From Promethearchaeota archaeon (GTDB lineage: Archaea > Asgardarchaeota > Lokiarchaeia > Sigyniarchaeales > SOKP01), in assembly GCA_019058365.1 (NCBI GenBank), contig JAHPZE010000019.1, positions 14,744 through 78,743 of the forward strand: DNA of 64,000 nt, written 5' to 3'. Shown here in pieces: positions 14,425 to 63,899 of the stretch (its first letter is position 1; every line of letters begins with the position of its first letter). A model generated the notes under the pieces. It made no database searches, was not told where the DNA came from, and was given only the letters and a program-made list of their open reading frames with translations. The translations under genes were made by a program, and so were the position numbers.

Positions 14425-15336
14425 ATGATGACTAAAACTGAGAATAATAAATCTAATATTATGAAAGGAAAAATCTGTATGATTACAGGTGCTAATTCTG
14501 GAATTGGTAAAGCGACTGCGATAGGTTTAGCGAAATTAGGGGCGACCTTGGTATTAGTTTGTCGGGATCAAGCTCGGGCGGAAAAAGCAATAGTAGAGAT
14601 TAAAAAAAAAACTAGTAATGATTCAATCGATATAATAATTGCCGACTTGTCTTCTCAAAAAGACATCCATAATTTAGTATCGGAGTTCAAAAAAAAGTAT
14701 GGTCAATTACACGTCCTAATTAATAATGCTGGAGTAAATTTAAATAAACATACATTAACCGAAGATGGAATTGAAACAACATTTGCAGTAAATTATTTGG
14801 CTCAATTTATGTTAAGTATTTTATTTTTTGATATCTTAAAAAAAAGTGCTCCTGCCCGCATTGTAAATGTGGCATCAAGTGTCCAAGCAAAAGTTATTGA
14901 TTTTGATGATCTAAATGGTGAAAAGCATTATAGTCAATTAAAAGCATATGCTCAATCAAAACTGGCTGTTATTGTCTTTACTTACGAATTTGCCCAAAAA
15001 ATCTGTGGAACAGGGGTTTCAATAAATTGTCTTCACCCGGGATATGTAAAAACGAATATGATACGTAATTTTCGACCCTTTGTCAAATATTTTTACCATT
15101 TGGTGGGCTTATTTATGAAAAGCCCGAAGCGTGGGGCTAAAAGTTCAATATATTTAGCATCAAATATAGATATTGATGGTGTCAGTGGAAAATATTTCAA
15201 AAAGAGAAAAGAAGCGAAGTCTGTCAAAGTATCTTATGATGCTACTGTATCTAAACAATTGTGGGATGTAAGTGTTAAACTAACAAAGGTTGATTTTAAA
15301 AGTAACTTATCCCAACTAATTGAAAATAAGACTTAA
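14425..15336 (+). CDS. Short-chain dehydrogenase/reductase (retinol dehydrogenase-like)
   Basis: TGANSGIG, NNAG, YAQSK and LHPGYVKT. Confidence 0.95.
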   Translation: MMTKTENNKSNIMKGKICMITGANSGIGKATAIGLAKLGATLVLVCRDQARAEKAIVEIKKKTSNDSIDIIIADLSSQKDIHNLVSEFKKKYGQLHVLINNAGVNLNKHTLTEDGIETTFAVNYLAQFMLSILFFDILKKSAPARIVNVASSVQAKVIDFDDLNGEKHYSQLKAYAQSKLAVIVFTYEFAQKICGTGVSINCLHPGYVKTNMIRNFRPFVKYFYHLVGLFMKSPKRGAKSSIYLASNIDIDGVSGKYFKKRKEAKSVKVSYDATVSKQLWDVSVKLTKVDFKSNLSQLIENKT

Positions 15337-50696: not shown

Positions 50697-52028
50697 TTGA
50701 GAAAGATGAATAAAAAGATTGTTTTAATTGGAGCAGGCTCAACATCATTTGGGCCTCCAATGTTTAATGACATCTATTTAAGTGATGTTTTAGAAGGTTC
50801 AACAATTGTTCTTAATGATATTAATAAAGAAAAGTTAGAAATGATTTATGACCTTTTACTAGCTGAAAATGAAAAACATAATAATAAATTCAGTATTGAA
50901 CGGACAACTGATCGATCTAAAGCTTTAAAGGGTGCTGATTTTATAATTAATTCAATAGAAGTTGGAGATCGAATGAAATTATGGCGCCAAGATTATGAGA
51001 TACCAAAAAAACACGGTTCAACACAGATTTTAGGGGAGTGTGGAGGACCAGGTGGTACTTTTCATGCATGGAGAATAATTCCTCCCATTGTTGAGATCGT
51101 CAAAGATGCTGAAAATATATGCCCTAATGCATTTTTCATTAATTTTTCAAATCCAATGTCTCGTGTTTGCTTGGCAATTAAAAGAAGTGTAAAAAATCTA
51201 AAATTCATTGGATTATGTCATCAAATTGATTTTTTGGTAAAGCATTTACCTATATTATTCAACAAACCCATTACTGACTTAAAAATGAAAGTTGCCGGGC
51301 TTAATCATTTTGCTTTTCTCCTAGAACTAGAGGAATTATCTACGGGAAAGAATTTGATGCCTTTTTTCAATACTAACGCTTTTAATTATTTTAAAAATAA
51401 GGAAGATAGATTCGAGTTTTCAACTCTCACTTTTGAAGTTTTTAAGAAATTTAGACATTTTTCATATGCGGGGGATAATCACTTAGGAGAATATCTCCAA
51501 TTTGGTGAAGAATTCACTGAAACTCGGGATATGATAGATTGGATAAATTTTATAGATAAAGAAGGTGAACTTCGTTTTAAGAGGTATTTACGTTATCATC
51601 GGAGACTTAAGAAAGGTACATATCCAAAAAAAGGAATGTTATCTACAGCACTCTCAGGAGAAAGAGCCATTCCAATAATTGAAGCAATAATTAATAATAT
51701 GAATTCATATGAAACTGCTGTAAATATTCCTAATAATAATATTGTTGATAATTTACCGCAAGACTTAATTTTAGAATGCTCAATAACAGTTGATAAAGAT
51801 GGTGTTCATGGGGTAAAAATAGGATCTTTGCCAAAGAATATCGCTGCATTACTTCGTATAGAAGCCACAATCCAAGACTTATGTGTTGAAGCAGTCCTTA
51901 GAAAATCTAAGGATATTGCGATCGCATGTTTAGCTATCGATCCGAATGTTGGAAATTTTGAAATGGCAGAAAACATCTTTAATGAGATGATTGAATTACA
52001 GAAAGGCCTTTTACCGAACTTCAAATAA
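50697..52028 (+). CDS. Family 4 glycoside hydrolase (alpha-galactosidase/glucosidase, NAD-dependent)
   Basis: KIVLIGAGSTSF, GECGGPGG, INFSNPM, GLCH, AGLNH and HLGEY. Confidence 0.93.
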   Translation: MRKMNKKIVLIGAGSTSFGPPMFNDIYLSDVLEGSTIVLNDINKEKLEMIYDLLLAENEKHNNKFSIERTTDRSKALKGADFIINSIEVGDRMKLWRQDYEIPKKHGSTQILGECGGPGGTFHAWRIIPPIVEIVKDAENICPNAFFINFSNPMSRVCLAIKRSVKNLKFIGLCHQIDFLVKHLPILFNKPITDLKMKVAGLNHFAFLLELEELSTGKNLMPFFNTNAFNYFKNKEDRFEFSTLTFEVFKKFRHFSYAGDNHLGEYLQFGEEFTETRDMIDWINFIDKEGELRFKRYLRYHRRLKKGTYPKKGMLSTALSGERAIPIIEAIINNMNSYETAVNIPNNNIVDNLPQDLILECSITVDKDGVHGVKIGSLPKNIAALLRIEATIQDLCVEAVLRKSKDIAIACLAIDPNVGNFEMAENIFNEMIELQKGLLPNFK

Positions 52029-52308
52029 TCAATGAATTTTTCCCTATTAAACCAAATTGAAAGTTATAATTGAATTTTCTAAATCAACAGAAAACTTTTC
52101 GTTTTTCTTTTTTCCAATTATTTTTAAAACAAAAGATTCATAAATATAATTTATAAATTCTTACCACTAAAATATTAATTCTACCTCTATTTTTTAAGAT
52201 TTACCAATGTGAATAATAAAACCTTTTAAATGAGCTTAACACCTTAGTAAATATATCCTATTATATTTATAAATTAATATTTTTATTATTCTCACGATCC
52301 AATAATAA

Positions 52309-55300
52309 TTGTGTTGGGCGATGATATCAGAAAATAGCAACAATTCACAAGAACGGATAAGGAAGGCCACAGAAGTTCTCCAGAAATTCTGGTGGTTCTC
52401 GTTTTTTTTAATCATTGCTCCCTTAATTGTAGGAATTGTATTTTTTTCAATTTTGAATTTCGCGGGAGTAGGTTTATTTATTGCTTTATCTCTATCAGTA
52501 GTAAGTTTTATGTTCGCTTTGCTTTTTTTCTATAAAGCCTTTGATAAATATAGAGATAATCCATTTTTTCTAAATAAAAAGAATAATCTCATTGCACGAA
52601 TTCATATCCTTTTTCTGATTTCTATATTATCATTTATTTCAACTCCTATTTTTATACTTATTTCCCCATTTGACTCATTTTATCATCTTCCAGTTATAAG
52701 TTATGCAATCCTTTACAATATTGTCTATTATTATTATTACTTCCAACCAATAGACTTTTTTGACTTGTCTGAAGAGGAATTCAAACATGCAGGTAGTTTT
52801 GAGTTAATTGCTAAGCAACCTTACAACTTTTTTGTTGTTATTAATCACATCGTTCAAATTATTTTTTTAATTTTTACTGCTTATACTAACTTTTCTTGGC
52901 TTTTTGCTCTTATAACAAACTTAGTCTTTTATTTCATCACATTAACAAGAACTAAAAACCAAATTAAAGTAATCAATGAATCAATAGTTAAAAAAAGCCC
53001 AATTTTGAAAGAATTAACGTCTTTTAAACGACGTTTTGTAGTTTCTATAATTAGTCTAATTTTTGTTTTATTAATTCAAATGCCCTTTGTTATTATTATC
53101 ATATTCAGTCTATCAGGAATTCAGTATTCGAGCTTAGATCTGATAAACAATTCCTTTTTAACAATAATATTCATCTTGTTCTATTTTAAATCTAAGTTTT
53201 ATGTAGATTACTACTATGGTTCAAAACTCGATCTTTATGATAAGCCTAGCAAAATTGAAAAATCAGAGGAAACTTACTCATTGTTAAGTACTAAATATCA
53301 AAAGTACAATTCTTATATATCTATATTTTTAATTCTCTTAATTACATCATTCTCTTTTTTGATTCAAATACCCTTATTAATCTTAATTATTCTTCCATTC
53401 ATTTATATACTTCTTCATTATGAGCAGAAGTATGACCTCTGTTCAAAAAAATATAATAAAATCGTAATTTTATTAAATTCTATTGCTCTTTTAACATACA
53501 TCTCTTTTGGGATAATCCCACCTATAATAGAGACCGTATTATTAAATTTTATGGTGTTTTGTATTTTTTTATATGCTGTTTTGCAGGTATTTGTTAAATT
53601 GGAATATTATACTAAAGAAAATGTTATTATAATTCAAAATTTACTTGCTGTTGCTAGTTTTACTTTATTAGTATATACATTCTTTCCGATTATTATTGTT
53701 GAATATACCGCTTATACAACAGACCCTTTTTTAATTCTCATTTCAAATATTCTCTTGCATTCATTAATTATTTCGGTGATCCTTTTAATCTCTCAATATG
53801 TTTTAGGGGTAAGATACTTTTACAGTAAATCCCCGAAGCTATTCAGAATCGTTGTTTTAATAAATAGTTTTTTAATCGAATTATTTATTTTTACTTTTAT
53901 ATTATTCAGTAACTATTTTTTAATCGATTTAATTCCTTTTCTACAAGGAATAATAATAACATTTGTACTATTTCCCATTTTTTTCATTTTTTTTCTTTAC
54001 ATAAATTATGGCTTACATCTGTTTCCCTTAGAATACTTCTTGAAATTATGCTATTTCACGCTCTGGATAGTTTTAATTGATTTTTTTATATCCATATTCA
54101 TAATATCTCTATTTACTACCTACTATATTATAATACCAATCGATTGCATTATTACTTCTATTTTTTATTACTTTTTATCAAAGTTCGGGTTAACATTGGA
54201 AAGAGTAGATGAACTCAAATTTAAAAAACACGTTAAAATCAATTCTTATTTAATAACAGTTGAACTATTTTCTCTATTTAATTTAATGTTTTTTGGCGCT
54301 TTTCAAGCGCTATCGTTATTTGAGAATATAATGTATTCAACATATTTATCATTAGCTTTAGTCTGTATAATAATTAATCTATTTTCGAAAAAAGAGATTT
54401 TTTCTGAAGATCTTTATATAAAATTAAACACGTTTATTCTGCTATATACTTCAGTAATAGCGTTTTACTATTTTTTGTTGCTAACACTTGATAATTTTTA
54501 TGTTTTTATAATTCCTCTCATGGTTTTTAACATAATCATTTTCATACCAATTTTATATTTAAGAAAGAAAAAACTATACCCTCAACTTATCTCTAAATCT
54601 ATAAGAATAAATAGTATTTTATTAGCAATTACAATATCTTTAATTCCAACAATCACAAGTTTAGAATTATACTTTTTAGGTTTATATTTTGATTTAATAT
54701 TCTTATTAATGACAACAATTAATTTTACTTTGTATATTTTATTACTAATTTTTGCAATCAGCTACCAGATATTAAAAAAAATCAATAGTGATGGAAACCA
54801 AACAAATTATTCTCTGAAATTACAGGTACTCATAACAGTTTGTATTAGCTTTACAACAATATTTTATTATTCATTTTTCTTACTAATCGGCACCTTATAT
54901 TATTATATTATCTTACCTCCAATTTTTACTTCTTGCTTCCTATACATCCCTCTCTTTTTGTCTTATAAGAGATCGATTTTCAATATTGAACATATAAAAA
55001 GAGCAATCATTTTAAATACAATAATTCTAGCAGGGTTATTCACTTCAATTCCAGTAGTAATTGGTCTGAATTTATTCTGGTTAGGTTTTATTTTTGATTT
55101 CAATATTTTTGTATTTAATATTTTCAATTCTTCCACATATATTTTCTATGCTTTTTTATTGATTCTTATAAATTTATCAAGAACGCTTAAGATCAAGGAA
55201 AAATATATTTCAAATTTAAATCAACTTAAAATTGTTGTCTTATTTAGTGTTTCTATTACAACTATCTTCTTTTATCCCTTCTTCTTATTAATCAATACTT

Positions 55301-58300
55301 TATATTATATTGTCATACCTTCAATTCTTACTTCCTGCTTCCTTTATATCCTTTTATATTATTCATATAAAACTGCAATTTTCAAAATTGAACATATAAA
55401 AAGAGTAATCATTATAAATACGATAATTCTTACAGGATTATTTACTTCGATTCCAGTACTAATTGGTTTAAATTTATTTTTATTAGGTATGGTTTTTAAT
55501 TTCAATATTTTTGTATTAAATATTTTAAATTCTTCTATATATATCTTCTATGCTTTTTTATTGATTCTAATTAATTTATCAAAAAAGCTTAAGATCAAGG
55601 ATAAATTCATTTCAAGTTTAAATCAACTTAAAATTATTATTTTATTTACTATTTCTATTACAACCATCTTCTGTTATCCATTTTTCCTATTAATCAATAC
55701 TCTTTATGGAATATTCCTACCAATAATTGCATTACTTTTTTCTTGGTTCTTCCTTTTTTATTATTCCTACAAGCAAGAATATTTCAATTTAGAATTTGTT
55801 AAAAAATTAACAATATATAATTTTATTATCTTCTCCTGTTTGATTATTTCTTTACCAACGATTATAGGGTTAGAATTAACGAGAATTGGATTAACAGCAA
55901 ACATAAAATTAATAATTACTGTAACCTTATTCCTATTTTTTAGTTTTCTAAAGATTTCCGAAGGCATAAGTGTTAAAATTATATTGAAAGAGAAATACAT
56001 TAAACAATTCAAATTGTCAGAGTTAATTTCATGGTTTTTATTTACACTGTTTATCTCTTATTATATAGCATCGACTTTTATTGTAGAATTAGTTTTTACC
56101 CCAATAACATCTCTTATTTTAGCTTGTAGTTTCTTAACTTTCTTTATTTTGAATATATATACAGTAGAATTGATGTCTAATTATCTCCCCGATTATCCAA
56201 ATATTAAATATTTTAAAGATCTAGGACTCTATGGGATAATAATATCAATCTCATTCGTTTTTACATTTTTAGGACTTACAACAGGGCTTTTTTCTTTTCT
56301 TATCTGGTGGCCCACAATATTAGGCATTTCATTCTTAATTGGCTTCTTTCTTGTGATTTTTATTATATTCCTAAACGTATGTGATAAACAATTTCAACTG
56401 TCACAAACAAAAATTGTTTCCAAGTTATTATCATGGTTAACTGTAAAGATAATCATTAGTCTTTCGATCATATCACTTATTGAATTTTTCGGATTTCTCT
56501 TATCTATTATTAATAAAGTCTTTTTGTTTTCCTTAACGTTCACGTTTTTAACACCTATAAGCCTTTATATATTGGAGAATTTGAGGTTTATTTCATCTAA
56601 AAAGCAAATGCTATTGAAAAAAATCACTTTAACAATATTTATTGTATCGATATTGATTTTATACATAGAATTTCTTTATTCATTAATATCTGTAATTCCT
56701 ATCTTTTATTTTATTCCTTTTATTCAAATAAGTGCTATCATTGCCAATTTAATCTTGTTTTTATATTATTATAGTATAAGATTTAACAAAATAATAGAAA
56801 TAAAATCTGTTTTTGAATTTTATAAAATTTATTTCCTATCCTTTTTATTATTTTTAAGTTTACTTTATTTTAACTCAGAGTCTTCAATTTTCCTTATATT
56901 AATATCCTATTTGCTCATCCTTTCTAAGAGGAGTACCATCCCCTTTTTTCGGTTTCTTTCATACTTTTTACTGAGTTATTTTACCTTCCTCGAAATTATT
57001 GTTATTCTCAGTTTTTATAACGTTATAATAGGCTTTGATATAGCATTAACAGGTATTTTCATTATTATTTATCTCTTATCTTTATGTGGGGTATTAGTAT
57101 TCACCATTTTGCTAAATATAAAGAAAAATAATACTTTAGAAAAATTTTATCTATATTCTGTCATTTCTCTTCTATCTTTTGTTACATTGATGATATTTAC
57201 TAATATATTGCTTCTTTATAACCTAACAATATCACTTTTCCTAGAATTGCTATTTTTAGGAATTTTCTTCTATCACCAGAAAGATGAGCGATATAAATGG
57301 TTTATCAAACCATGTGTAATTTTGTTCATATTTGATATTATTAGCTTTCTATCATACTCCTGGCTTTTTAATAACCAAGTCTTTGCAGATTACAATTCGA
57401 TTCTAACTTTTACTATTACAATGACTGTCACTGGATTTGGGTTTATCCTATTGTATAATAGTTCACCAGCAAGATTCAGAAAAAGATCTTTTTATATTGT
57501 ATTGATTTCAATTATAATCTCATTTCCTACTTTCTTATATTTTATTATTATTGCTTCTTTAATGATGCCTCTATTTTCCTTAGTCCCATTAATATTTGCG
57601 ATTGATATTGGCGTTCTTATATTTTATTTATCTATTGGGATTTATCAATGGAAGATATCCATGGCAATTTGGAAATCTGGATGGTATGCTTGGAATCTAT
57701 TACCTTTTGTTAACTTTATTATCATTTATCAAAGTCTCACCGGAATAGATATTTTTACAAACTCATTGAGATTTGGAGCATTTGATGCTAGTGGGTCATT
57801 TATTTTATCTATAATAATCTGCTCGTTATTTTTCTTTCCTGTTGTGTATACCAAAATCAAGAAGAATTTCTCTACAATAGTTTTTATTGTTTGGGGTGAG
57901 AGTTTATTCTTACTTTATTGGGTTAGCCTAAATTTATTTGTATCGGATATTTTGTTAAGAAATTTTTCTTTTATTTTGTTTTCAGTCGTTTTATTGATGC
58001 CATTATTAGCGATATTTAAATACTGGAAAATTATTTCAATTCTTTGGGTATTCCCTCTAACGATTATTAACGTTACATTTCTATTTTTCTATTTGTTATC
58101 AATTGGGGTCTCATTAGAGATGACTGTTTCACTTGATATTTTAGTGATAGGGTTATTTCTAATAGTTTACTCGTTTTTTCCAAATATTAGATCAATTGGG
58201 GTTGTTTTAATAAGTGGATATGTCGTTACTTTATTAGGTATTTTCTTGACAATCTATTTCATTCTTTACTTAATTATTTTGAATCCAATTTTTTCACTAA

Positions 58301-61300
58301 ATATTAGTTTTCTCGTAATTGGTTTCAGTCTTTTTTCCTCTAAATATGTTGAAGTTCCAAAAAGACTTATCGATTTGTGTCTTTCATGGATTCTAATTCT
58401 CAACCTTTCATGGTTTACCTTTAATACGTTCAATCTATTTCCGGGGCTACTGATATCTGGTTTATCATTAGCATTAACCGTATTTGGATGTTCTTTATTT
58501 ATATTTAATCGCTATAAAATGAAAATGCGTATTAATAAGATAATTCCCTTTTTAATAGTGGCATTTGGAACATCTTCCTCAATTACATCCTTAAGTTATA
58601 TTATATTTAATGCAACACCGGGTATTTTAATTTCTATGTTTTCTTCTGTGTTTATTATATTCCTTTACTTCATTTTTGTTGAATATCGTTATATTCTCTG
58701 GTTTATTATTCCAATTCCTATCACAACACCTATATTAGAAGTTCTACTGAGATTTGAAGTAATAAAACCTTTCTGGCTTTTAACTTGGGCCATGATTTAC
58801 CTTTTTACTTTTCAAATTTTAATTAACTTATTTAAAAATACAGTAAAGGAAGAACCACCAGAAATAAAAAATAGTATATTAAAGTTTTATAAAGATAAAG
58901 ATCAATTAAGATGGCTTAATCTTACATGCTTCATTCTTAATTCAATGTTTTCTTCCATTTTCTTCGCAATTATTATTCCATATTTAATGCCATATTTGGT
59001 ATTTTCTCAAATTTTATTTGTTTACCAAATCTCTGATTTTCTAATATTATGGCCAATTTTATTTTTGCTTTGTATGAAATATATAGAAAAATCGGAGATA
59101 GATATAAAGATAAAAGATATCTTACGTTATTTTAGCAAAATTAGTGCTATTTTCTATCTTTTAATTCCAATAGCGCTAGGCATCAATATTTTTCTTTATA
59201 TGATTTTAATTAATTCGAACCTTGTAATTACTATTTATATTGTATTGCTAGTGATAAGTGGATTAGTATTTATTGAAGTATCTTTCATAGACCGGAATCT
59301 CTTATATTTATTATTTAATTCATCCCGGAATAAACTAACTTTATGGTCTTGGGTTATTTTTAGTAATATTTTGTCTCTATTCCTCTTTTTATTTCATTTA
59401 AACTTTTTCCTGTTAGTTTTAACAATCTCACTTTTAGGACTTATTTCTCTTTATTTCTTATCTTACTTAGATATTTCTAAACAAATAATTACCAAAGGTC
59501 GTTTAATACTCATTTATAATTCATTTATTTGGAGTTCTTTTTATCTAGCATCCTTAATCTCTGATGGATTGATACTAATCTTCGAAGAGTTAATAGGATT
59601 TGCCTACTATTCGTTGTTATTCCAAAATTCATCATTTATATTATATATTTTAAGCGTTTCCTTCGTTAGAATTGAAAAAGATATAAAAAATAAAATCGAA
59701 TTTTCTCTTTTCATTATATTCCAGGGATTGTTAGCAATTAATTTAATATACATCTTCATATTAAATGGTATTTTAAACTTTTTCTCAGTTAATTTAGTCA
59801 TTTTTATAGAGGTATGTCTTTCATTCATATCTGTTTACTATTTCAATTTTATATTAGCTGAGAAGAAATATCCAAATTTTCTGCTAAAAATGCATTCAAT
59901 TTTGTTTTTGATATTGTATTGTGAAATAAGCATTATAATTTATGGTTTATTAAGCGGAGTAATAGGAATTTATGAAAGTATTATAGTATCTCTTTCTGTA
60001 TTATTGATTTTCACATCACTAGATATTTATTCAATTAAAAAGATAAAGGAGGGCTATGCACGTTTAATTCATACTATTAGCTTTTTAACAATTTCAGTGT
60101 TAACGTTTCTAATCTTATATGATTATATCTCTCAATATCCATTCTTTCTTGGTTTAGGAATTTTTATTTTTATGATAATGCAATTTTATACTAATTATTC
60201 TCTCTTTAAGGCATTAGAGGATTTGTACCCAAAAGGTCAAGTTTCTCTTAAAAAAGACCAAAAAGTTATTCAAAAATTAATCGGAACAGTTTTTTATGCT
60301 ACAATATGCATATTCTTAAGTCAAATTTTAACTTTGTATGGAGTCGAATTACAATTGATCCTTTTAATTTTAAGTCTCGTAATCCATGGATTAATGATAA
60401 TAGACAAATTTTTACTGAAATTTTTAGGAAAAATCACTAATTATATTCAAGTAATCTCTTGGATCTCTATTATGATATTTACATCTACCTATTTAATATG
60501 GGTGTATAGCACCTATTTTGCCGCTTTCTTTTATACAGTTATTCCCATCATCGTTATTATCCTACTACTTGAGTTTGCTTACCTTATGAATTTGTTAGCT
60601 TTTTGGAGTTTTGTTGCCTTCAATAAAGAGAAGATAAGGTTTTTACTGATATTAATATCATATCTCAATTTTATAACTTGGCCTTTATATTTTGCTTCTT
60701 TGAATCTATTACACACCCTTAATTTAACACTCGCGTCTTTTTTCATCATGTTTTTGATAACCTTAATTGATAATATTTTAAGGCAAGATTTCCGAAAATC
60801 GTTAAGATCGTTCTCGATTCTAATAATTGGAGGATTATTGTCCATTGATTCTTTCTTATTGCTGAATTCTCTTCCGAATTTCAATATTTTTTTGAATTTA
60901 AGTATTTCTTCCTTAGTTATACATGTATTAATGTTAATAGATAGCTATTTGTTGAAATTTATCGGGAAATTTACTAACTCCATTAAGGTGTTTTCATACA
61001 TCTTAATTATGATTTTTACATCAGTATATTTAACGTGGCTTTATAGTACCTTTTATTTAACTTTCTCTCCTACTGTGATTCCATTCATTATTATTATCCT
61101 TATCCTTGAATTTGCCTATCTTTTCAAAGTATCGGCATCTTGGAAATTAGTTGCGTCCAATAAAGAAAGAATTAAATTTTATTTGATTATATCAACATAT
61201 CTTAATTTTATAACTTGGCCTTTATATTTTGCTTCTTTAAATCCATTTTACGTTCTTAATTTAGTGTTAGCTTCTTTTTTCATTATGTTTTTCTTATCTT

Positions 61301-62190
61301 TAATTGATACAGTTTTAAAGGTAGATTTCCGAAAATCCTTGAGATCTTACTCATTTCTCATAATTGGAGGTTTAATATCAATTGATCTCTTTTTTATGTT
61401 CCAATTTATATTGGTACTTGATATTTTCCTAAATTTAAGTGTCTCTTCTTTAGTTTTTGTAATTTTCTTAGGGATAAAAATAAAACCATTCAAGGGACAC
61501 TCAGCTGGAGCTTTTATATTTTGGATTGTTATTTTTCTACTCTTAAGTTCAATTATATACCATATATCATTATCTTTTATTATTACAGGAATATTTTTTG
61601 CCTTTACTGTTTTAATTTATCCCTTTGTTTTCCTTTTAGAAGAACTAAGAGAACTTATTAATAAAATTACTGAATTATTAACAAGGATCTTTACACATCT
61701 CAGAATTTTAATTAAGAATATGTTTATTAGAATTTTCATTTTATGTAAGAGGTATTTTAAATTCCTTTGGATTCTTATTAGTGCGGGTATAGCAACATTC
61801 ATAGGAATCCTATTTTCTGACATTATTTTTGGTTTATTAAATCCATACCATTCCATTATTCTAATATTTCCTATTTTTGGGATAATTTATTCTCTTAAAC
61901 CTTCTGAAAAAACTGAAGACGTTGATATCATGTTTAGACGTAGAATGTTTCGTTTAATTATTAGCTGGAGTAGTATTATCATAATTTTATTTTCTTTTCT
62001 CGACCCCGTTTACTATGTTTTCACTACCTGGATATCAATTTGGATTTTGGGAGCAATTTTATTGCCTTATATCATTTTCAAGGAGAAAAATGAAAATATT
62101 TCAATTAAGTGGAGGTTTTATACATTAATAGTATTGATATCAATGCTAGTTTTATTTGGAATTATTGTTGCTGTCCAATTCTATCTATAG
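52309..62190 (+). CDS. Giant (3293-aa) polytopic membrane protein of unknown function
   Basis: 9.9-kb uninterrupted ORF in very AT-rich DNA; continuous hydrophobic helices with short Lys-rich loops; ATG 52321 is the likely start. Confidence 0.9.
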   Translation: MCWAMISENSNNSQERIRKATEVLQKFWWFSFFLIIAPLIVGIVFFSILNFAGVGLFIALSLSVVSFMFALLFFYKAFDKYRDNPFFLNKKNNLIARIHILFLISILSFISTPIFILISPFDSFYHLPVISYAILYNIVYYYYYFQPIDFFDLSEEEFKHAGSFELIAKQPYNFFVVINHIVQIIFLIFTAYTNFSWLFALITNLVFYFITLTRTKNQIKVINESIVKKSPILKELTSFKRRFVVSIISLIFVLLIQMPFVIIIIFSLSGIQYSSLDLINNSFLTIIFILFYFKSKFYVDYYYGSKLDLYDKPSKIEKSEETYSLLSTKYQKYNSYISIFLILLITSFSFLIQIPLLILIILPFIYILLHYEQKYDLCSKKYNKIVILLNSIALLTYISFGIIPPIIETVLLNFMVFCIFLYAVLQVFVKLEYYTKENVIIIQNLLAVASFTLLVYTFFPIIIVEYTAYTTDPFLILISNILLHSLIISVILLISQYVLGVRYFYSKSPKLFRIVVLINSFLIELFIFTFILFSNYFLIDLIPFLQGIIITFVLFPIFFIFFLYINYGLHLFPLEYFLKLCYFTLWIVLIDFFISIFIISLFTTYYIIIPIDCIITSIFYYFLSKFGLTLERVDELKFKKHVKINSYLITVELFSLFNLMFFGAFQALSLFENIMYSTYLSLALVCIIINLFSKKEIFSEDLYIKLNTFILLYTSVIAFYYFLLLTLDNFYVFIIPLMVFNIIIFIPILYLRKKKLYPQLISKSIRINSILLAITISLIPTITSLELYFLGLYFDLIFLLMTTINFTLYILLLIFAISYQILKKINSDGNQTNYSLKLQVLITVCISFTTIFYYSFFLLIGTLYYYIILPPIFTSCFLYIPLFLSYKRSIFNIEHIKRAIILNTIILAGLFTSIPVVIGLNLFWLGFIFDFNIFVFNIFNSSTYIFYAFLLILINLSRTLKIKEKYISNLNQLKIVVLFSVSITTIFFYPFFLLINTLYYIVIPSILTSCFLYILLYYSYKTAIFKIEHIKRVIIINTIILTGLFTSIPVLIGLNLFLLGMVFNFNIFVLNILNSSIYIFYAFLLILINLSKKLKIKDKFISSLNQLKIIILFTISITTIFCYPFFLLINTLYGIFLPIIALLFSWFFLFYYSYKQEYFNLEFVKKLTIYNFIIFSCLIISLPTIIGLELTRIGLTANIKLIITVTLFLFFSFLKISEGISVKIILKEKYIKQFKLSELISWFLFTLFISYYIASTFIVELVFTPITSLILACSFLTFFILNIYTVELMSNYLPDYPNIKYFKDLGLYGIIISISFVFTFLGLTTGLFSFLIWWPTILGISFLIGFFLVIFIIFLNVCDKQFQLSQTKIVSKLLSWLTVKIIISLSIISLIEFFGFLLSIINKVFLFSLTFTFLTPISLYILENLRFISSKKQMLLKKITLTIFIVSILILYIEFLYSLISVIPIFYFIPFIQISAIIANLILFLYYYSIRFNKIIEIKSVFEFYKIYFLSFLLFLSLLYFNSESSIFLILISYLLILSKRSTIPFFRFLSYFLLSYFTFLEIIVILSFYNVIIGFDIALTGIFIIIYLLSLCGVLVFTILLNIKKNNTLEKFYLYSVISLLSFVTLMIFTNILLLYNLTISLFLELLFLGIFFYHQKDERYKWFIKPCVILFIFDIISFLSYSWLFNNQVFADYNSILTFTITMTVTGFGFILLYNSSPARFRKRSFYIVLISIIISFPTFLYFIIIASLMMPLFSLVPLIFAIDIGVLIFYLSIGIYQWKISMAIWKSGWYAWNLLPFVNFIIIYQSLTGIDIFTNSLRFGAFDASGSFILSIIICSLFFFPVVYTKIKKNFSTIVFIVWGESLFLLYWVSLNLFVSDILLRNFSFILFSVVLLMPLLAIFKYWKIISILWVFPLTIINVTFLFFYLLSIGVSLEMTVSLDILVIGLFLIVYSFFPNIRSIGVVLISGYVVTLLGIFLTIYFILYLIILNPIFSLNISFLVIGFSLFSSKYVEVPKRLIDLCLSWILILNLSWFTFNTFNLFPGLLISGLSLALTVFGCSLFIFNRYKMKMRINKIIPFLIVAFGTSSSITSLSYIIFNATPGILISMFSSVFIIFLYFIFVEYRYILWFIIPIPITTPILEVLLRFEVIKPFWLLTWAMIYLFTFQILINLFKNTVKEEPPEIKNSILKFYKDKDQLRWLNLTCFILNSMFSSIFFAIIIPYLMPYLVFSQILFVYQISDFLILWPILFLLCMKYIEKSEIDIKIKDILRYFSKISAIFYLLIPIALGINIFLYMILINSNLVITIYIVLLVISGLVFIEVSFIDRNLLYLLFNSSRNKLTLWSWVIFSNILSLFLFLFHLNFFLLVLTISLLGLISLYFLSYLDISKQIITKGRLILIYNSFIWSSFYLASLISDGLILIFEELIGFAYYSLLFQNSSFILYILSVSFVRIEKDIKNKIEFSLFIIFQGLLAINLIYIFILNGILNFFSVNLVIFIEVCLSFISVYYFNFILAEKKYPNFLLKMHSILFLILYCEISIIIYGLLSGVIGIYESIIVSLSVLLIFTSLDIYSIKKIKEGYARLIHTISFLTISVLTFLILYDYISQYPFFLGLGIFIFMIMQFYTNYSLFKALEDLYPKGQVSLKKDQKVIQKLIGTVFYATICIFLSQILTLYGVELQLILLILSLVIHGLMIIDKFLLKFLGKITNYIQVISWISIMIFTSTYLIWVYSTYFAAFFYTVIPIIVIILLLEFAYLMNLLAFWSFVAFNKEKIRFLLILISYLNFITWPLYFASLNLLHTLNLTLASFFIMFLITLIDNILRQDFRKSLRSFSILIIGGLLSIDSFLLLNSLPNFNIFLNLSISSLVIHVLMLIDSYLLKFIGKFTNSIKVFSYILIMIFTSVYLTWLYSTFYLTFSPTVIPFIIIILILEFAYLFKVSASWKLVASNKERIKFYLIISTYLNFITWPLYFASLNPFYVLNLVLASFFIMFFLSLIDTVLKVDFRKSLRSYSFLIIGGLISIDLFFMFQFILVLDIFLNLSVSSLVFVIFLGIKIKPFKGHSAGAFIFWIVIFLLLSSIIYHISLSFIITGIFFAFTVLIYPFVFLLEELRELINKITELLTRIFTHLRILIKNMFIRIFILCKRYFKFLWILISAGIATFIGILFSDIIFGLLNPYHSIILIFPIFGIIYSLKPSEKTEDVDIMFRRRMFRLIISWSSIIIILFSFLDPVYYVFTTWISIWILGAILLPYIIFKEKNENISIKWRFYTLIVLISMLVLFGIIVAVQFYL
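54900..55703 (+). repeat. Intragenic tandem duplication, 402-bp (134-aa) unit
   Basis: attgaacatataaaaagag at 54985 and 55387; IEHIKRAIILNTIILAGLFTSIP versus IEHIKRVIIINTIILTGLFTSIP. Edges approximate. Confidence 0.9.
60370..61443 (+). repeat. Intragenic tandem duplication, 537-bp (179-aa) unit
   Basis: ttataacttggcctttatattttgcttctt at 60671 and 61208; YLNFITWPLYFASLN and DFRKSLRS each occur twice. Edges approximate. Confidence 0.9.
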
Positions 62191-62378: not shown

Positions 62379-63899
62379 GTGATCTATTATATGGAAACTT
62401 TAACAAAAAGAATATTAGCTATTGTTCTTATAGCAGTCATTGGAACAGGTATTGGAGTTGGAGCGTGGTTTTTTCTAGGTCAAGAGAAGAGTATTCCTTG
62501 GCAAACCCCTGGAGTAACTGGTATACCATCGAATAGGTTAATAAAAGTTGGTGTGTTAAATGATATCGGTGAGATTCAAGGAGATCATGCATGGCAGGGA
62601 GCATGGTTAGCTGCGTATAACATAAATACAGCTGGCGGAATTGATGTTAATGGAACAAAATATTATATTGCAGTTATAGCAGAAGATACTGATGAATCTG
62701 CCGCTCAACTCGATGTAACCAAAGGAGTTGCTGCAGCTCAAAAAATTATATCTATAGATGGAGCTCAATATCTTATGGGTGGGTTCAGAACTGAAGCTTT
62801 AAAAGCATATATTGAAGTTGTTATGGATAGTAAAACAATCTTTTTTGGTACTGGAGCTGCTACTGACTCTTTCTGTGAAAATGTAGTAGACAGTTATTCT
62901 AGATATAAATACTTCTTTAGAACTAACCCACATAACTCAAGTGCTATGGGAAAGCAAATAATTTATTTCTTGATCTATGCAGCATTCTTTGGAATACCAC
63001 TGCAAGCGTATGTGCAAGGTGCTGCTGCTGCTCCCACCGATCCATACTATGGGACCGGGATACCAGGTCAAAAAAATTCCTTAAATGTGACTAAAATTGC
63101 CATTCTTAGAGAAGATTTGGACTGGACAATTCCATTTGCCGCAGCTATCAAAACATATATACCATATCCTCTAGTCAAAGAGATCGCATATCCGATTACT
63201 GCATCCTCAGAAGATTTTACGACCTACATTAACCAAATTCAAGCTGCTGGAGCTCAAGTTTGTATCCCGATAATTTCTGGTCAGGGGGGAATAAAGATGA
63301 CGACAGCATATGCAGATATACAACCAAATTTCCTTCTATGTGGCGTAGATGTTCAAGCGCAAACTTCAGAATATTGGAGTGATACTTTAGGAGGTTGTGC
63401 TTATGAGATATATTCGCATTCATTCGCAGGTTTGAATAACACTAATGCAACTCCGTTGTCACAACCTTATTATGATCAATATGAGGCTAAATGGGGTCAT
63501 GCTCCTCTTTACACAGGTTCAGGATGTTACGATTCTATGTATTTACTAGCGGATGCAATCGACCAAACCAATTCTTTCAATGAGCCTGCTTTAATTAATT
63601 TCCTTGAAAGTATTACCAGAACTAGTCCACGGGTAAATCTGTCTGTTACTGTTGAAAAATTTGCTTTTACACAGGTATCAGAGGGCTTTGCTGGAGCTCA
63701 TGATGTAGTAGCGGATTATCCATTTGCCACTATAGCTTATGGTCAATGGCAACCAAAGGGATTGACAGATGGGGCGCAAATCTGTATACCAACAGGTGCG
63801 AGTACTCCCTTATCCATCTACTCTATATATCCAGATAGGCTTGCGACAGGAAGCATGCTCTTACCACCGTGGGGTATTAACGGCTTAGTTAATCTCTAA
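62379..63899 (+). CDS. ABC branched-chain amino acid-type substrate-binding protein (type I PBP)
   Basis: N-terminal TM anchor, IKVGVL, IN.AGGI.V.G, GGFRTE, YKYFFR and YD..Y.LADAI; ATG 62391 is the likely start. Confidence 0.9.
   Translation: MIYYMETLTKRILAIVLIAVIGTGIGVGAWFFLGQEKSIPWQTPGVTGIPSNRLIKVGVLNDIGEIQGDHAWQGAWLAAYNINTAGGIDVNGTKYYIAVIAEDTDESAAQLDVTKGVAAAQKIISIDGAQYLMGGFRTEALKAYIEVVMDSKTIFFGTGAATDSFCENVVDSYSRYKYFFRTNPHNSSAMGKQIIYFLIYAAFFGIPLQAYVQGAAAAPTDPYYGTGIPGQKNSLNVTKIAILREDLDWTIPFAAAIKTYIPYPLVKEIAYPITASSEDFTTYINQIQAAGAQVCIPIISGQGGIKMTTAYADIQPNFLLCGVDVQAQTSEYWSDTLGGCAYEIYSHSFAGLNNTNATPLSQPYYDQYEAKWGHAPLYTGSGCYDSMYLLADAIDQTNSFNEPALINFLESITRTSPRVNLSVTVEKFAFTQVSEGFAGAHDVVADYPFATIAYGQWQPKGLTDGAQICIPTGASTPLSIYSIYPDRLATGSMLLPPWGINGLVNL

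Follow-up and report, generated by a model that had tools for sequence, protein, structure and literature searches.

Positions 14,744 to 78,743 of contig JAHPZE010000019.1 (NCBI GenBank assembly GCA_019058365.1; forward strand), a 64,000-nucleotide stretch of DNA from Promethearchaeota archaeon (Lokiarchaeia; Sigyniarchaeales) referred to here as the window, contain one giant open reading frame (ORF) encoding a 3293-aa protein predicted to consist of about 103 transmembrane helices, with the N-terminus inside and the C-terminus outside the cell. The gene encoding this giant protein is conserved among Lokiarchaeia and is under purifying selection, and its product is built of three conserved modules joined by spacers that grow and shrink in whole groups of helices. 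In the reading favored here, to which we assign a probability of about 0.45, the giant protein would be an elongated intramembrane scaffold with the bilayer as its target and with docking sites for partner proteins.

Conservation and selection

The ORF (52309..62190, +) runs from a TTG codon through 3293 codons without a stop; the true start is probably the ATG at 52321, four codons further on, since the orthologues begin at that Met. The product is rich in Ile (17%), Leu (17%), Phe (12%), Ser (9%) and Tyr (6%), and has a grand average of hydropathy (GRAVY) of 1.17. The gene lies on contig C43 of a 4.74 Mb genome of 29.5% GC, in which it is single-copy, with no paralogue, and in which a hydropathy scan counted 95 segments in the giant ORF against 19 in the runner-up of the whole genome. 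One homologue is 86% identical across the entire length. The ratio of nonsynonymous to synonymous substitution rates (dN/dS) is 0.17-0.20 for the whole gene in four comparisons and at most 0.28 in any segment, near the 0.14-0.15 of two neighboring enzyme genes, and falls to 0.11-0.13 in the core described below. The gene is thus under purifying selection, and sequence comparison confirms that it is real and conserved and excludes a chance reading frame. An assembly chimera, a concern raised in an earlier note made from the sequence alone, is likewise excluded because orthologues in closed genomes and from independent samples are colinear with it.

An artefact, whether a frame open by chance in AT-rich DNA, a misjoined assembly or a gene in decay, might be suspected from the 23-26% GC of the gene, from the nearly equal number of hydrophobic segments in shuffled sequences, and from the RNA value of the orthologue in strain MK-D1, which fails to discriminate, so that expression of the gene is putative. 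Full-length colinear orthologues and the dN/dS values weigh against all three forms, and the artefact reading, refuted by conservation and selection at the level of sequence, retains a negligible probability. The drop in GC extends over positions 52001-62000 of the window, and the GC skew of the coding strand is negative there, opposite to that of most other plus-strand genes of the window; both follow from the Ile, Leu, Phe and Ser codons. A promoter scan of the gene gave results at chance level. In the MK-D1 RNA-seq data, the Promethearchaeum syntrophicum orthologue has 152 RPKM (reads per kilobase per million mapped reads), among the lowest of 116 neighboring genes (PMC7015854). These 116 consecutive genes, ribosomal protein L21e included, span just 109-375 RPKM (PMC7015854, Supplementary Table 3), and with so flat a range the values are poor at separating expressed from background genes.

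Topology

Topology was predicted with a purpose-built Viterbi model, not DeepTMHMM, giving 103 helices arranged as about 50 hairpins with the N-terminus in and the C-terminus out. The inside loops have a median length of 15 aa and hold 208 Lys/Arg in total, and the outside loops have a median length of 4 aa and hold 4. No loop is longer than 41 aa; on the outside the maximum is 24 aa, and the chain ends with an outer loop of 2 aa, the last helix and a C-terminal tail of 4 aa. The helix count by itself is weak evidence, since shuffled sequences of the same composition still produce 88-97 ‘helices’, so that the count largely reflects composition. The hairpin topology is judged real because basic and non-basic loops alternate strictly, unlike in shuffles: a side-blind model gives loop charge a lag-1 autocorrelation of -0.68, compared to 0.0 in shuffles, of which the lowest reached -0.17. 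As modeled, the giant protein is therefore a run of about 50 helical hairpins without a soluble domain. The earlier note had described an ORF made almost entirely of transmembrane helices with short basic loops, which the hairpins and their inside Lys/Arg residues bear out; its figure of 90-100 helices had the right order of magnitude and was slightly low. It had also seen no recognizable soluble or catalytic domain, in agreement with the lack of Pfam and NCBIfam matches and with the short loops.

Transporters and intramembrane enzymes usually need small residues and mid-helix charges. In the giant protein, Gly and Ala together make up 5.2% of helix residues, whereas the average over a further 42 polytopic proteins from the source genome is 13.0%, and the three conserved modules contain just one conserved charged residue at a mid-helix position. 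Many of the helices carry a conserved Asn or Gln.

Modules and spacers

Repeats were sought by profile self-comparison (a diagonal scan) with a reversed-sequence control, and were found at offsets of 134 and 179 residues only, in two regions; outside helices 20-36 and 84-95, no repeat stood clearly above the control. The first region, expandable spacer 1 (helices 20-36; 54328..55950, +), comprises about four tandem 134-aa, 4-helix units, of which the youngest two copies are 84% identical in DNA at a spacing of 402 nt, and relatives are short of one or two units. The second, expandable spacer 2 (helices 84-95; 60349..61482, +), comprises two 179-aa, 6-helix copies with 71% DNA identity at a spacing of 537 nt, and is present as a single copy in most relatives. 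Where close orthologues differ by large indels, the blocks gained or lost are of 134, 268/269, 179 and 120 residues. Family members range between 2,525 and 4,905 aa, their length rising by about 32 aa with each helix (r = 0.99), and the predicted helix number is odd in 71 of 72 proteins. Because length scales with helix number and indels come in blocks, the giant protein resembles a length-tolerant array and not a closed transporter fold. Judged from these comparisons, it is modular, not a uniform repeat. The suggestion of an intramembrane solenoid or scaffold in the earlier note holds up in part: the 4-helix (134-aa) and 6-helix (179-aa) growth units fit an elongated array, while a uniform repeat is contradicted by the confinement of sequence repeats to the two spacers, the rest of the chain consisting of unique modules. 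Three of these are conserved nodes, a feature beyond what the note had seen.

The N-terminal module (helices 1-8, residues 5-315; 52321..53253, +) carries conserved basic and aromatic cytoplasmic motifs, and conserved Asn and Gln residues in helices 4-7. An N-terminal amphipathic helix together with the start of helix 1 (52342..52422, +) forms a motif shared with the Thorarchaeia proteins described below. In many relatives the N-module is a gene of its own, of about 313 aa, immediately upstream of and overlapping the rest, and its profile matches 134 proteins of 172-548 aa, mostly of about 313 aa. The split falls in the cytoplasmic loop of 41 residues that links helix 8 to helix 9 (53188..53310, +), and split and fused states have changed at least three times on the core tree at this one shared site. 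Three fused relatives contain a zinc ribbon in the helix 4/5 loop of the module. Other departures from the common gene structure occur in single genomes. A 92-aa fragment repeating the beginning of the N-module, apparently a decayed duplication, lies just upstream of an intact giant gene in genome G089 (L053:14176-14454), and the giant gene is cut into two ORFs by one in-frame stop after residue 2065 in G038 (L032:6227-14836) and by one after residue 645 in G281 (L110), each representing either a natural split or a sequencing error.

The most conserved part is the Trp-rich core (residues 1600-2180, helices 49-68; 57106..58848, +), which contains invariant Trp, Pro, Asn, Gly and Phe residues. 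The core includes the longest outer loop, predicted to form a beta-hairpin, and is otherwise all helical in its AlphaFold2 model, for which local confidence is high and global confidence modest (predicted local distance difference test, pLDDT, 85; predicted template modeling score, pTM, 0.56), as in elongated folds. Covariation in the core is enriched for helix pairs i+1 (3.4x), i+2 (2.0x) and i+4 (1.7-2.0x), whereas pairs further apart than i+7 show too little of it (0.3-0.7x), a weak signal from about 63 effective sequences. Whole-length covariation was disregarded, being confounded by shared gaps.

The C-terminal module has a cytoplasmic amphipathic helix continuing helix 98 (61633..61761, +), with a best periodicity of 98.5 degrees (11/3). 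This helix is 41 residues long in 73 of 84 alignment rows and 52 residues long (+11) in 8. It is followed by a five-helix domain (61762..62187, +), with a conserved charged cytoplasmic motif (E3259, K3267 and R3269, on the inner side) before the last helix. The model of the module is all helix, with helix 98 and the amphipathic stretch forming one 59-residue helix. Complex prediction between the C-terminal module and the N-module plus core gave 0.19 against a mark of 0.32, and was counted neither for nor against any reading.

Distribution in Lokiarchaeia

A protein search returned 83 homologues, the named ones being mostly proteins from metagenome-assembled genomes of Lokiarchaeia or Promethearchaeota; a few, with 45-76% identity, are labeled Hodarchaeota or Thorarchaeota, probably through differences in naming. 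A profile of the core matched 59 clusters among 1.84 billion proteins, and the clusters checked belong to the same group. Orthologues are present in the closed genomes of P. syntrophicum (DSAG12_00898, QEE15075.1; 3940 aa), Ca. Harpocratesius repetitus (MCF2139232.1; 4296 aa) and Lokiarchaeum ossiferum, which has two paralogues, NEF87_003094 (4905 aa, about 138 predicted helices) and NEF87_002906 (3146 aa). The Loki orthologues contain all three modules in the same order, and they are all annotated as hypothetical, as are the Helarchaeales and Thorarchaeia proteins named below; the three locus tags of the cultured strains of P. syntrophicum and L. ossiferum, and the accessions searched with them, are named in no main text of the literature searched. 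The Helarchaeales members are shorter (2549-2723 aa; e.g. NVM52301.1, 2549 aa), match the core with E-values of 1e-25 to 1e-31, and also have the C-terminal motif. The N-module profile matches 97 of 134 genomes in the family of the source genome, 11 of 14, 2 of 4 and 1 of 1 genomes in three other families of the order, and 0 of 10 in one Loki genus (g22), which is without the giant gene. Homologues span about 2,500-4,900 aa and 79-138 helices across Lokiarchaeia. In other Asgard classes searched, outside Lokiarchaeia and Thorarchaeia, no homologue was found, a result to be read as ‘not found’ and not as ‘absent’, because these proteins diverge fast.

A probable relative in Thorarchaeia

The N-module profile search also gave a weak match in one Thorarchaeia genome, to a 2033-aa all-helix protein (TFG09799.1) whose family is present in 25 of 87 Thor genomes. 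Profile comparison with hhalign aligned the first 50 residues of the Thor and Loki proteins (probability 48%, E 2e-4) and the region of the amphipathic helix (15%, E 0.002), the Thor proteins having two 11/3-type amphipathic helices, each with +11 insertions. A third likeness is the charged motif before the last helix, bridged by Helarchaeales sequences. Comparison of the Thor and Loki core profiles gave no significant alignment. With three weak matches at matching positions, the two groups of giants probably share common descent.

In all 15 genomes with loci examined, a divergent gene for a zinc-ribbon/CFI-box-CTERM protein (NF041770) lies upstream of the Thor giant. This partner is 163-178 aa long with several zinc ribbons (e.g. 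L062:11159-11692, -; 14 others, L099-L113). Both genes are present in 19 Thor genomes, the giant only in 6, the partner only in 4 and neither in 58, a co-occurrence that does not count as independent evidence because adjacent genes are inherited together. A search of five genomes of Lokiarchaeia, the source genome among them, did not find the partner, and the CFI-box is mentioned in no paper of the literature searched; the zinc ribbon of the three Loki N-modules is possibly an echo of this partner. In about half of the Thor loci (L099, L101, L102, L105-L107 and L109), an OB-fold (Ssb-like) gene is convergent with the giant gene.

Searches for known families and folds

Pfam gave no match at E <= 0.1 for the giant protein and none at E <= 1 for two orthologues, and NCBIfam gave none for the giant protein. 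Searches of PDB sequences, Pfam and NCBIfam with the protein, orthologues, modules and alignments returned nothing usable. The sole PDB sequence row, to SemiSWEET (PQ-loop family; E 0.005), was rejected because SemiSWEET helix 1 falls on a cytoplasmic loop. Thus, no characterized family was matched, and no described family accounts for the giant protein; a fold shared with DUF2339, if true, would lessen its novelty.

Fold searches used models of the core and the C-terminal module. With Foldseek, neither gave a match at E <= 0.001, and the weak rows were mostly solenoids, all with E > 0.3. The best VIA rows were to EccD (Z 9.6) and HRD1 (Z 9.2, root-mean-square deviation, rmsd, 31.6), within the range of common helical arrangements; the two EccD rows for the core had rmsd values of 4.3 over 138 residues and 7.4 over 168, both at Z 9.6. 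In the Atlas searches no row reached a TM-score of 0.5 by query, and the DUF2339 rows (TM 0.48 over 147 residues, 0.21 by query, in one search; feature score 0.82 in the other) remained below the lead threshold of the tool. The fold searches thus speak neither for nor against a likeness to Piezo or DUF2339. The weak covariation of the core fits the near-neighbor contact pattern of alpha-solenoids; in the known alpha-solenoid repeat proteins (TPR, HEAT, ARM), however, tandem sequence repeats run along the whole chain, compared to two regions here. The giant Omnitrophota proteins (bioRxiv 10.1101/2023.11.21.568195) are similarly encoded by single very long ORFs and have numerous transmembrane helices, but are composed mostly of extracellular catalytic or adhesion domains with SecA-like domains, whereas the giant protein is without a soluble domain.

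A proposed intramembrane scaffold

In the favored reading, the roughly 50 hairpins would pack mainly on near neighbors to form a belt or arc in the cytoplasmic membrane, which at about 1 nm per helix row would be some 25-50 nm long, with the basic inner loops gripping anionic lipid head groups. Specific work would be done by three nodes: the N-module with its 8 helices, which can stand apart; the Trp-rich core; and the C-terminal module, which would lay its 11/3 amphipathic helix on the inner leaflet. The spacers would merely set the length, gain or loss of 4-6 helices being tolerated. The job of the protein would probably be mechanical: it would order, stiffen or curve part of the bilayer and keep partner membrane proteins in place, with neither solute movement nor catalysis involved. 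Topology, modularity, quantized length change, selection and helix periodicity are directly observed. The steps from this architecture to an elongated shape, lipid binding and a scaffold role are inferred: because hairpin blocks are freely gained and lost and covariation is between near neighbors, an elongated array is suggested in which length matters little and the nodes matter most. Synucleins, apolipoproteins and perilipins use helices of the 11/3 type to bind membrane surfaces, and in the Loki as well as the Thor proteins the +11 insertions leave the 11-residue register of the amphipathic helix intact.

Several points weigh against the scaffold. Shape and curvature are hypothetical, and sequence repeats cover two regions only. 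The invariant Trp, Pro, Asn and Gly of the core and the conserved Asn and Gln of the helices could line a ligand site, and an 11/3 helix can equally form a right-handed coiled coil. The gene is not found in some well-assembled Loki genera, and a structural element needed in bulk would hardly be expected to have an RNA level among the lowest of its neighborhood, as the P. syntrophicum orthologue does.

A bolder proposal, doubtful but worth stating, is that of a single-chain intramembrane skeleton at least as old as the last ancestor shared by Loki and Thor, in which an adjustable belt of 60-140 helices would be closed into a ring or polymer by its ends and the 11/3 helix, corralling or bending the membrane. 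The link to the membrane protrusions of these archaea is weak, because protrusions that are just as dynamic occur in Hodarchaeales strain HC1 (PMC13716822), from a lineage in which the genomes searched gave no homologue, and one Loki genus has the gene in none of its ten genomes.

Gene neighborhood

The genes flanking the giant gene in the window are a family-4 glycoside hydrolase upstream (50697..52028, +), syntenic only within family f1, and, downstream, a Peripla_BP_6 gene for the solute-binding component of a Liv-type ABC transporter (62379..63899, +), syntenic only within the genus; neither is counted in the system. The neighbors were rejected as a functional clue, since glycoside hydrolase, aminotransferase, major facilitator superfamily (MFS) transporter and Liv ABC genes are syntenic within genus or family only. 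In four genomes, all of the genus Promethearchaeum (L028:3227-5442, L029, L066 and L067), the giant gene is preceded on the same strand by genes for a 2-helix acidic protein, in an NfeD-like position, and flotillin/SPFH; in the source genome this pair is located elsewhere, on contig C22. Outside the window, contig C47 (760-44406, +) carries a 14,548-aa ORF whose product has six hydrophobic stretches close to its N-terminus, followed by a long body rich in Ser, Thr, Asp and Tyr, and is probably a giant membrane-anchored surface protein.

Alternative functions

The closest characterized functional analogue, by analogy and not by sequence, would be Arc3A/DUF2339 (PF10101) of Pseudomonas aeruginosa and other bacteria, which is similarly massive and polytopic, with a variable helix number and no evident catalytic residues (PMC8926400). 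By an unknown mechanism, Arc3A prevents lysophospholipid build-up (PMC8926400). In a rival reading the giant protein would have a similar role in lipid handling or membrane defense, in which the helix array would sequester, flip or remove damaged or foreign lipids such as lysolipids. The weak DUF2339 clusters in both Atlas searches point the same way, and low resting transcription and a patchy distribution would suit an inducible role, Arc3A also being low unless induced (PMC8926400). However, Arc3A has 35 predicted helices, compared to 79-138 here, is bacterial and partners with Arc3B. PF10101 matches neither the giant protein nor its genome, although the control search was positive in two of 14 genomes, both bacterial; the Atlas rows are below the lead threshold, and the conserved neighbors include no lipase or lipid gene. 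Archaeal ether lipids, moreover, resist phospholipase A, and lipid defense is considered unlikely. A platform for biogenesis or secretion, either an EccD-like scaffold or an insertase or chaperone that assembles very large membrane-anchored surface proteins, is less probable. EccD of mycobacterial type VII secretion (PDB 6sgx_C and 7b9f) is a noncatalytic membrane scaffold of stacked helices and provides the best structural rows for the core, the source genome encodes the 14,548-aa protein, and the Thor relative lies head-to-head with the CFI-box gene in every locus examined. Against this, Z below about 13 is common for helical bundles, and the EccD match covers 138-168 of 596 residues, less than a third of the core, at 7-10% identity, in the range of such bundles. 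The sequence and locus features of EccD were not found, there being no PF19053 match, no N-terminal ubiquitin-like or other soluble domain, and no ESX or secretion genes nearby. No ATPase or secretion gene is among the conserved neighbors, the CFI-box partner was not found in the five Lokiarchaeia genomes searched for it, and its co-occurrence with the Thor giant is not independent.

Piezo1 and Piezo2, with 38 helices per subunit, resemble the giant protein in having very many helices, 4-helix units and a long intracellular helix near the C-terminal domain. Convergence on a mechanosensitive channel, in which 4-helix units form a lever arm and C-terminal helices an oligomeric pore, would account for the 4-helix duplication units, the i+4 covariation and the conserved C-terminal domain that ends a long surface helix; it is rated, if anything, slightly below the secretion platform. 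Piezo has an extracellular cap and a soluble C-terminal domain, both missing in the giant protein, which has 6-helix units too (4-helix units being proven only for helices 20-36), a conservation peak at mid-chain and not at the C-terminus, and nearly three times the helices. Between the amphipathic helix and the C-terminus, Loki proteins have 5 helices and Thor proteins apparently more, about 10 as counted by eye. Membership in the Piezo family fails both on sequence, with no Pfam match, and on topology, with outer loops of at most 24 aa, the last of 2 aa, leaving no cap, and a 4-aa C-terminal tail; the earlier note, which had drawn the comparison, had claimed no homology. Least probable of these functions, and very unlikely, is that of an ordinary transporter or intramembrane enzyme residing in the core or N-module, with the remainder as accessory padding. 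The strong constraint on the core, the conserved Asn/Gln of N-module helices 4-7, the existence of this module as a 313-aa gene and the transporter genes flanking the locus in this genus would suit it. However, there is no family match for the whole protein, modules or alignments, the SemiSWEET row being misaligned; small or charged mid-helix residues are few, and the neighbors change completely between families.

Significance

The 103 helices of the giant protein, and the approximately 138 of its L. ossiferum relative, represent roughly three times the membrane crossings of Piezo or Arc3A, and bear on two questions: how such a chain is inserted by the Sec translocon and folded, and whether membranes can contain arrays of the alpha-solenoid kind. 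Constructs for expression and structural studies could follow the fold boundaries given by the gene split behind helix 8 and by the indel blocks. The candidate is testable, as each of the two cultured Lokiarchaeia carries the gene and a proteome has been deposited for L. ossiferum (PXD074767). Asgard archaea of the Lokiarchaea type are close relatives of eukaryotes, and the study of eukaryote origins has yet to explain how their membranes, which no wall supports, are shaped and stabilized; this family provides a concrete candidate. If the skeleton proposal were true, Asgard membranes would be shaped from within the bilayer, by a mechanism without a described counterpart.

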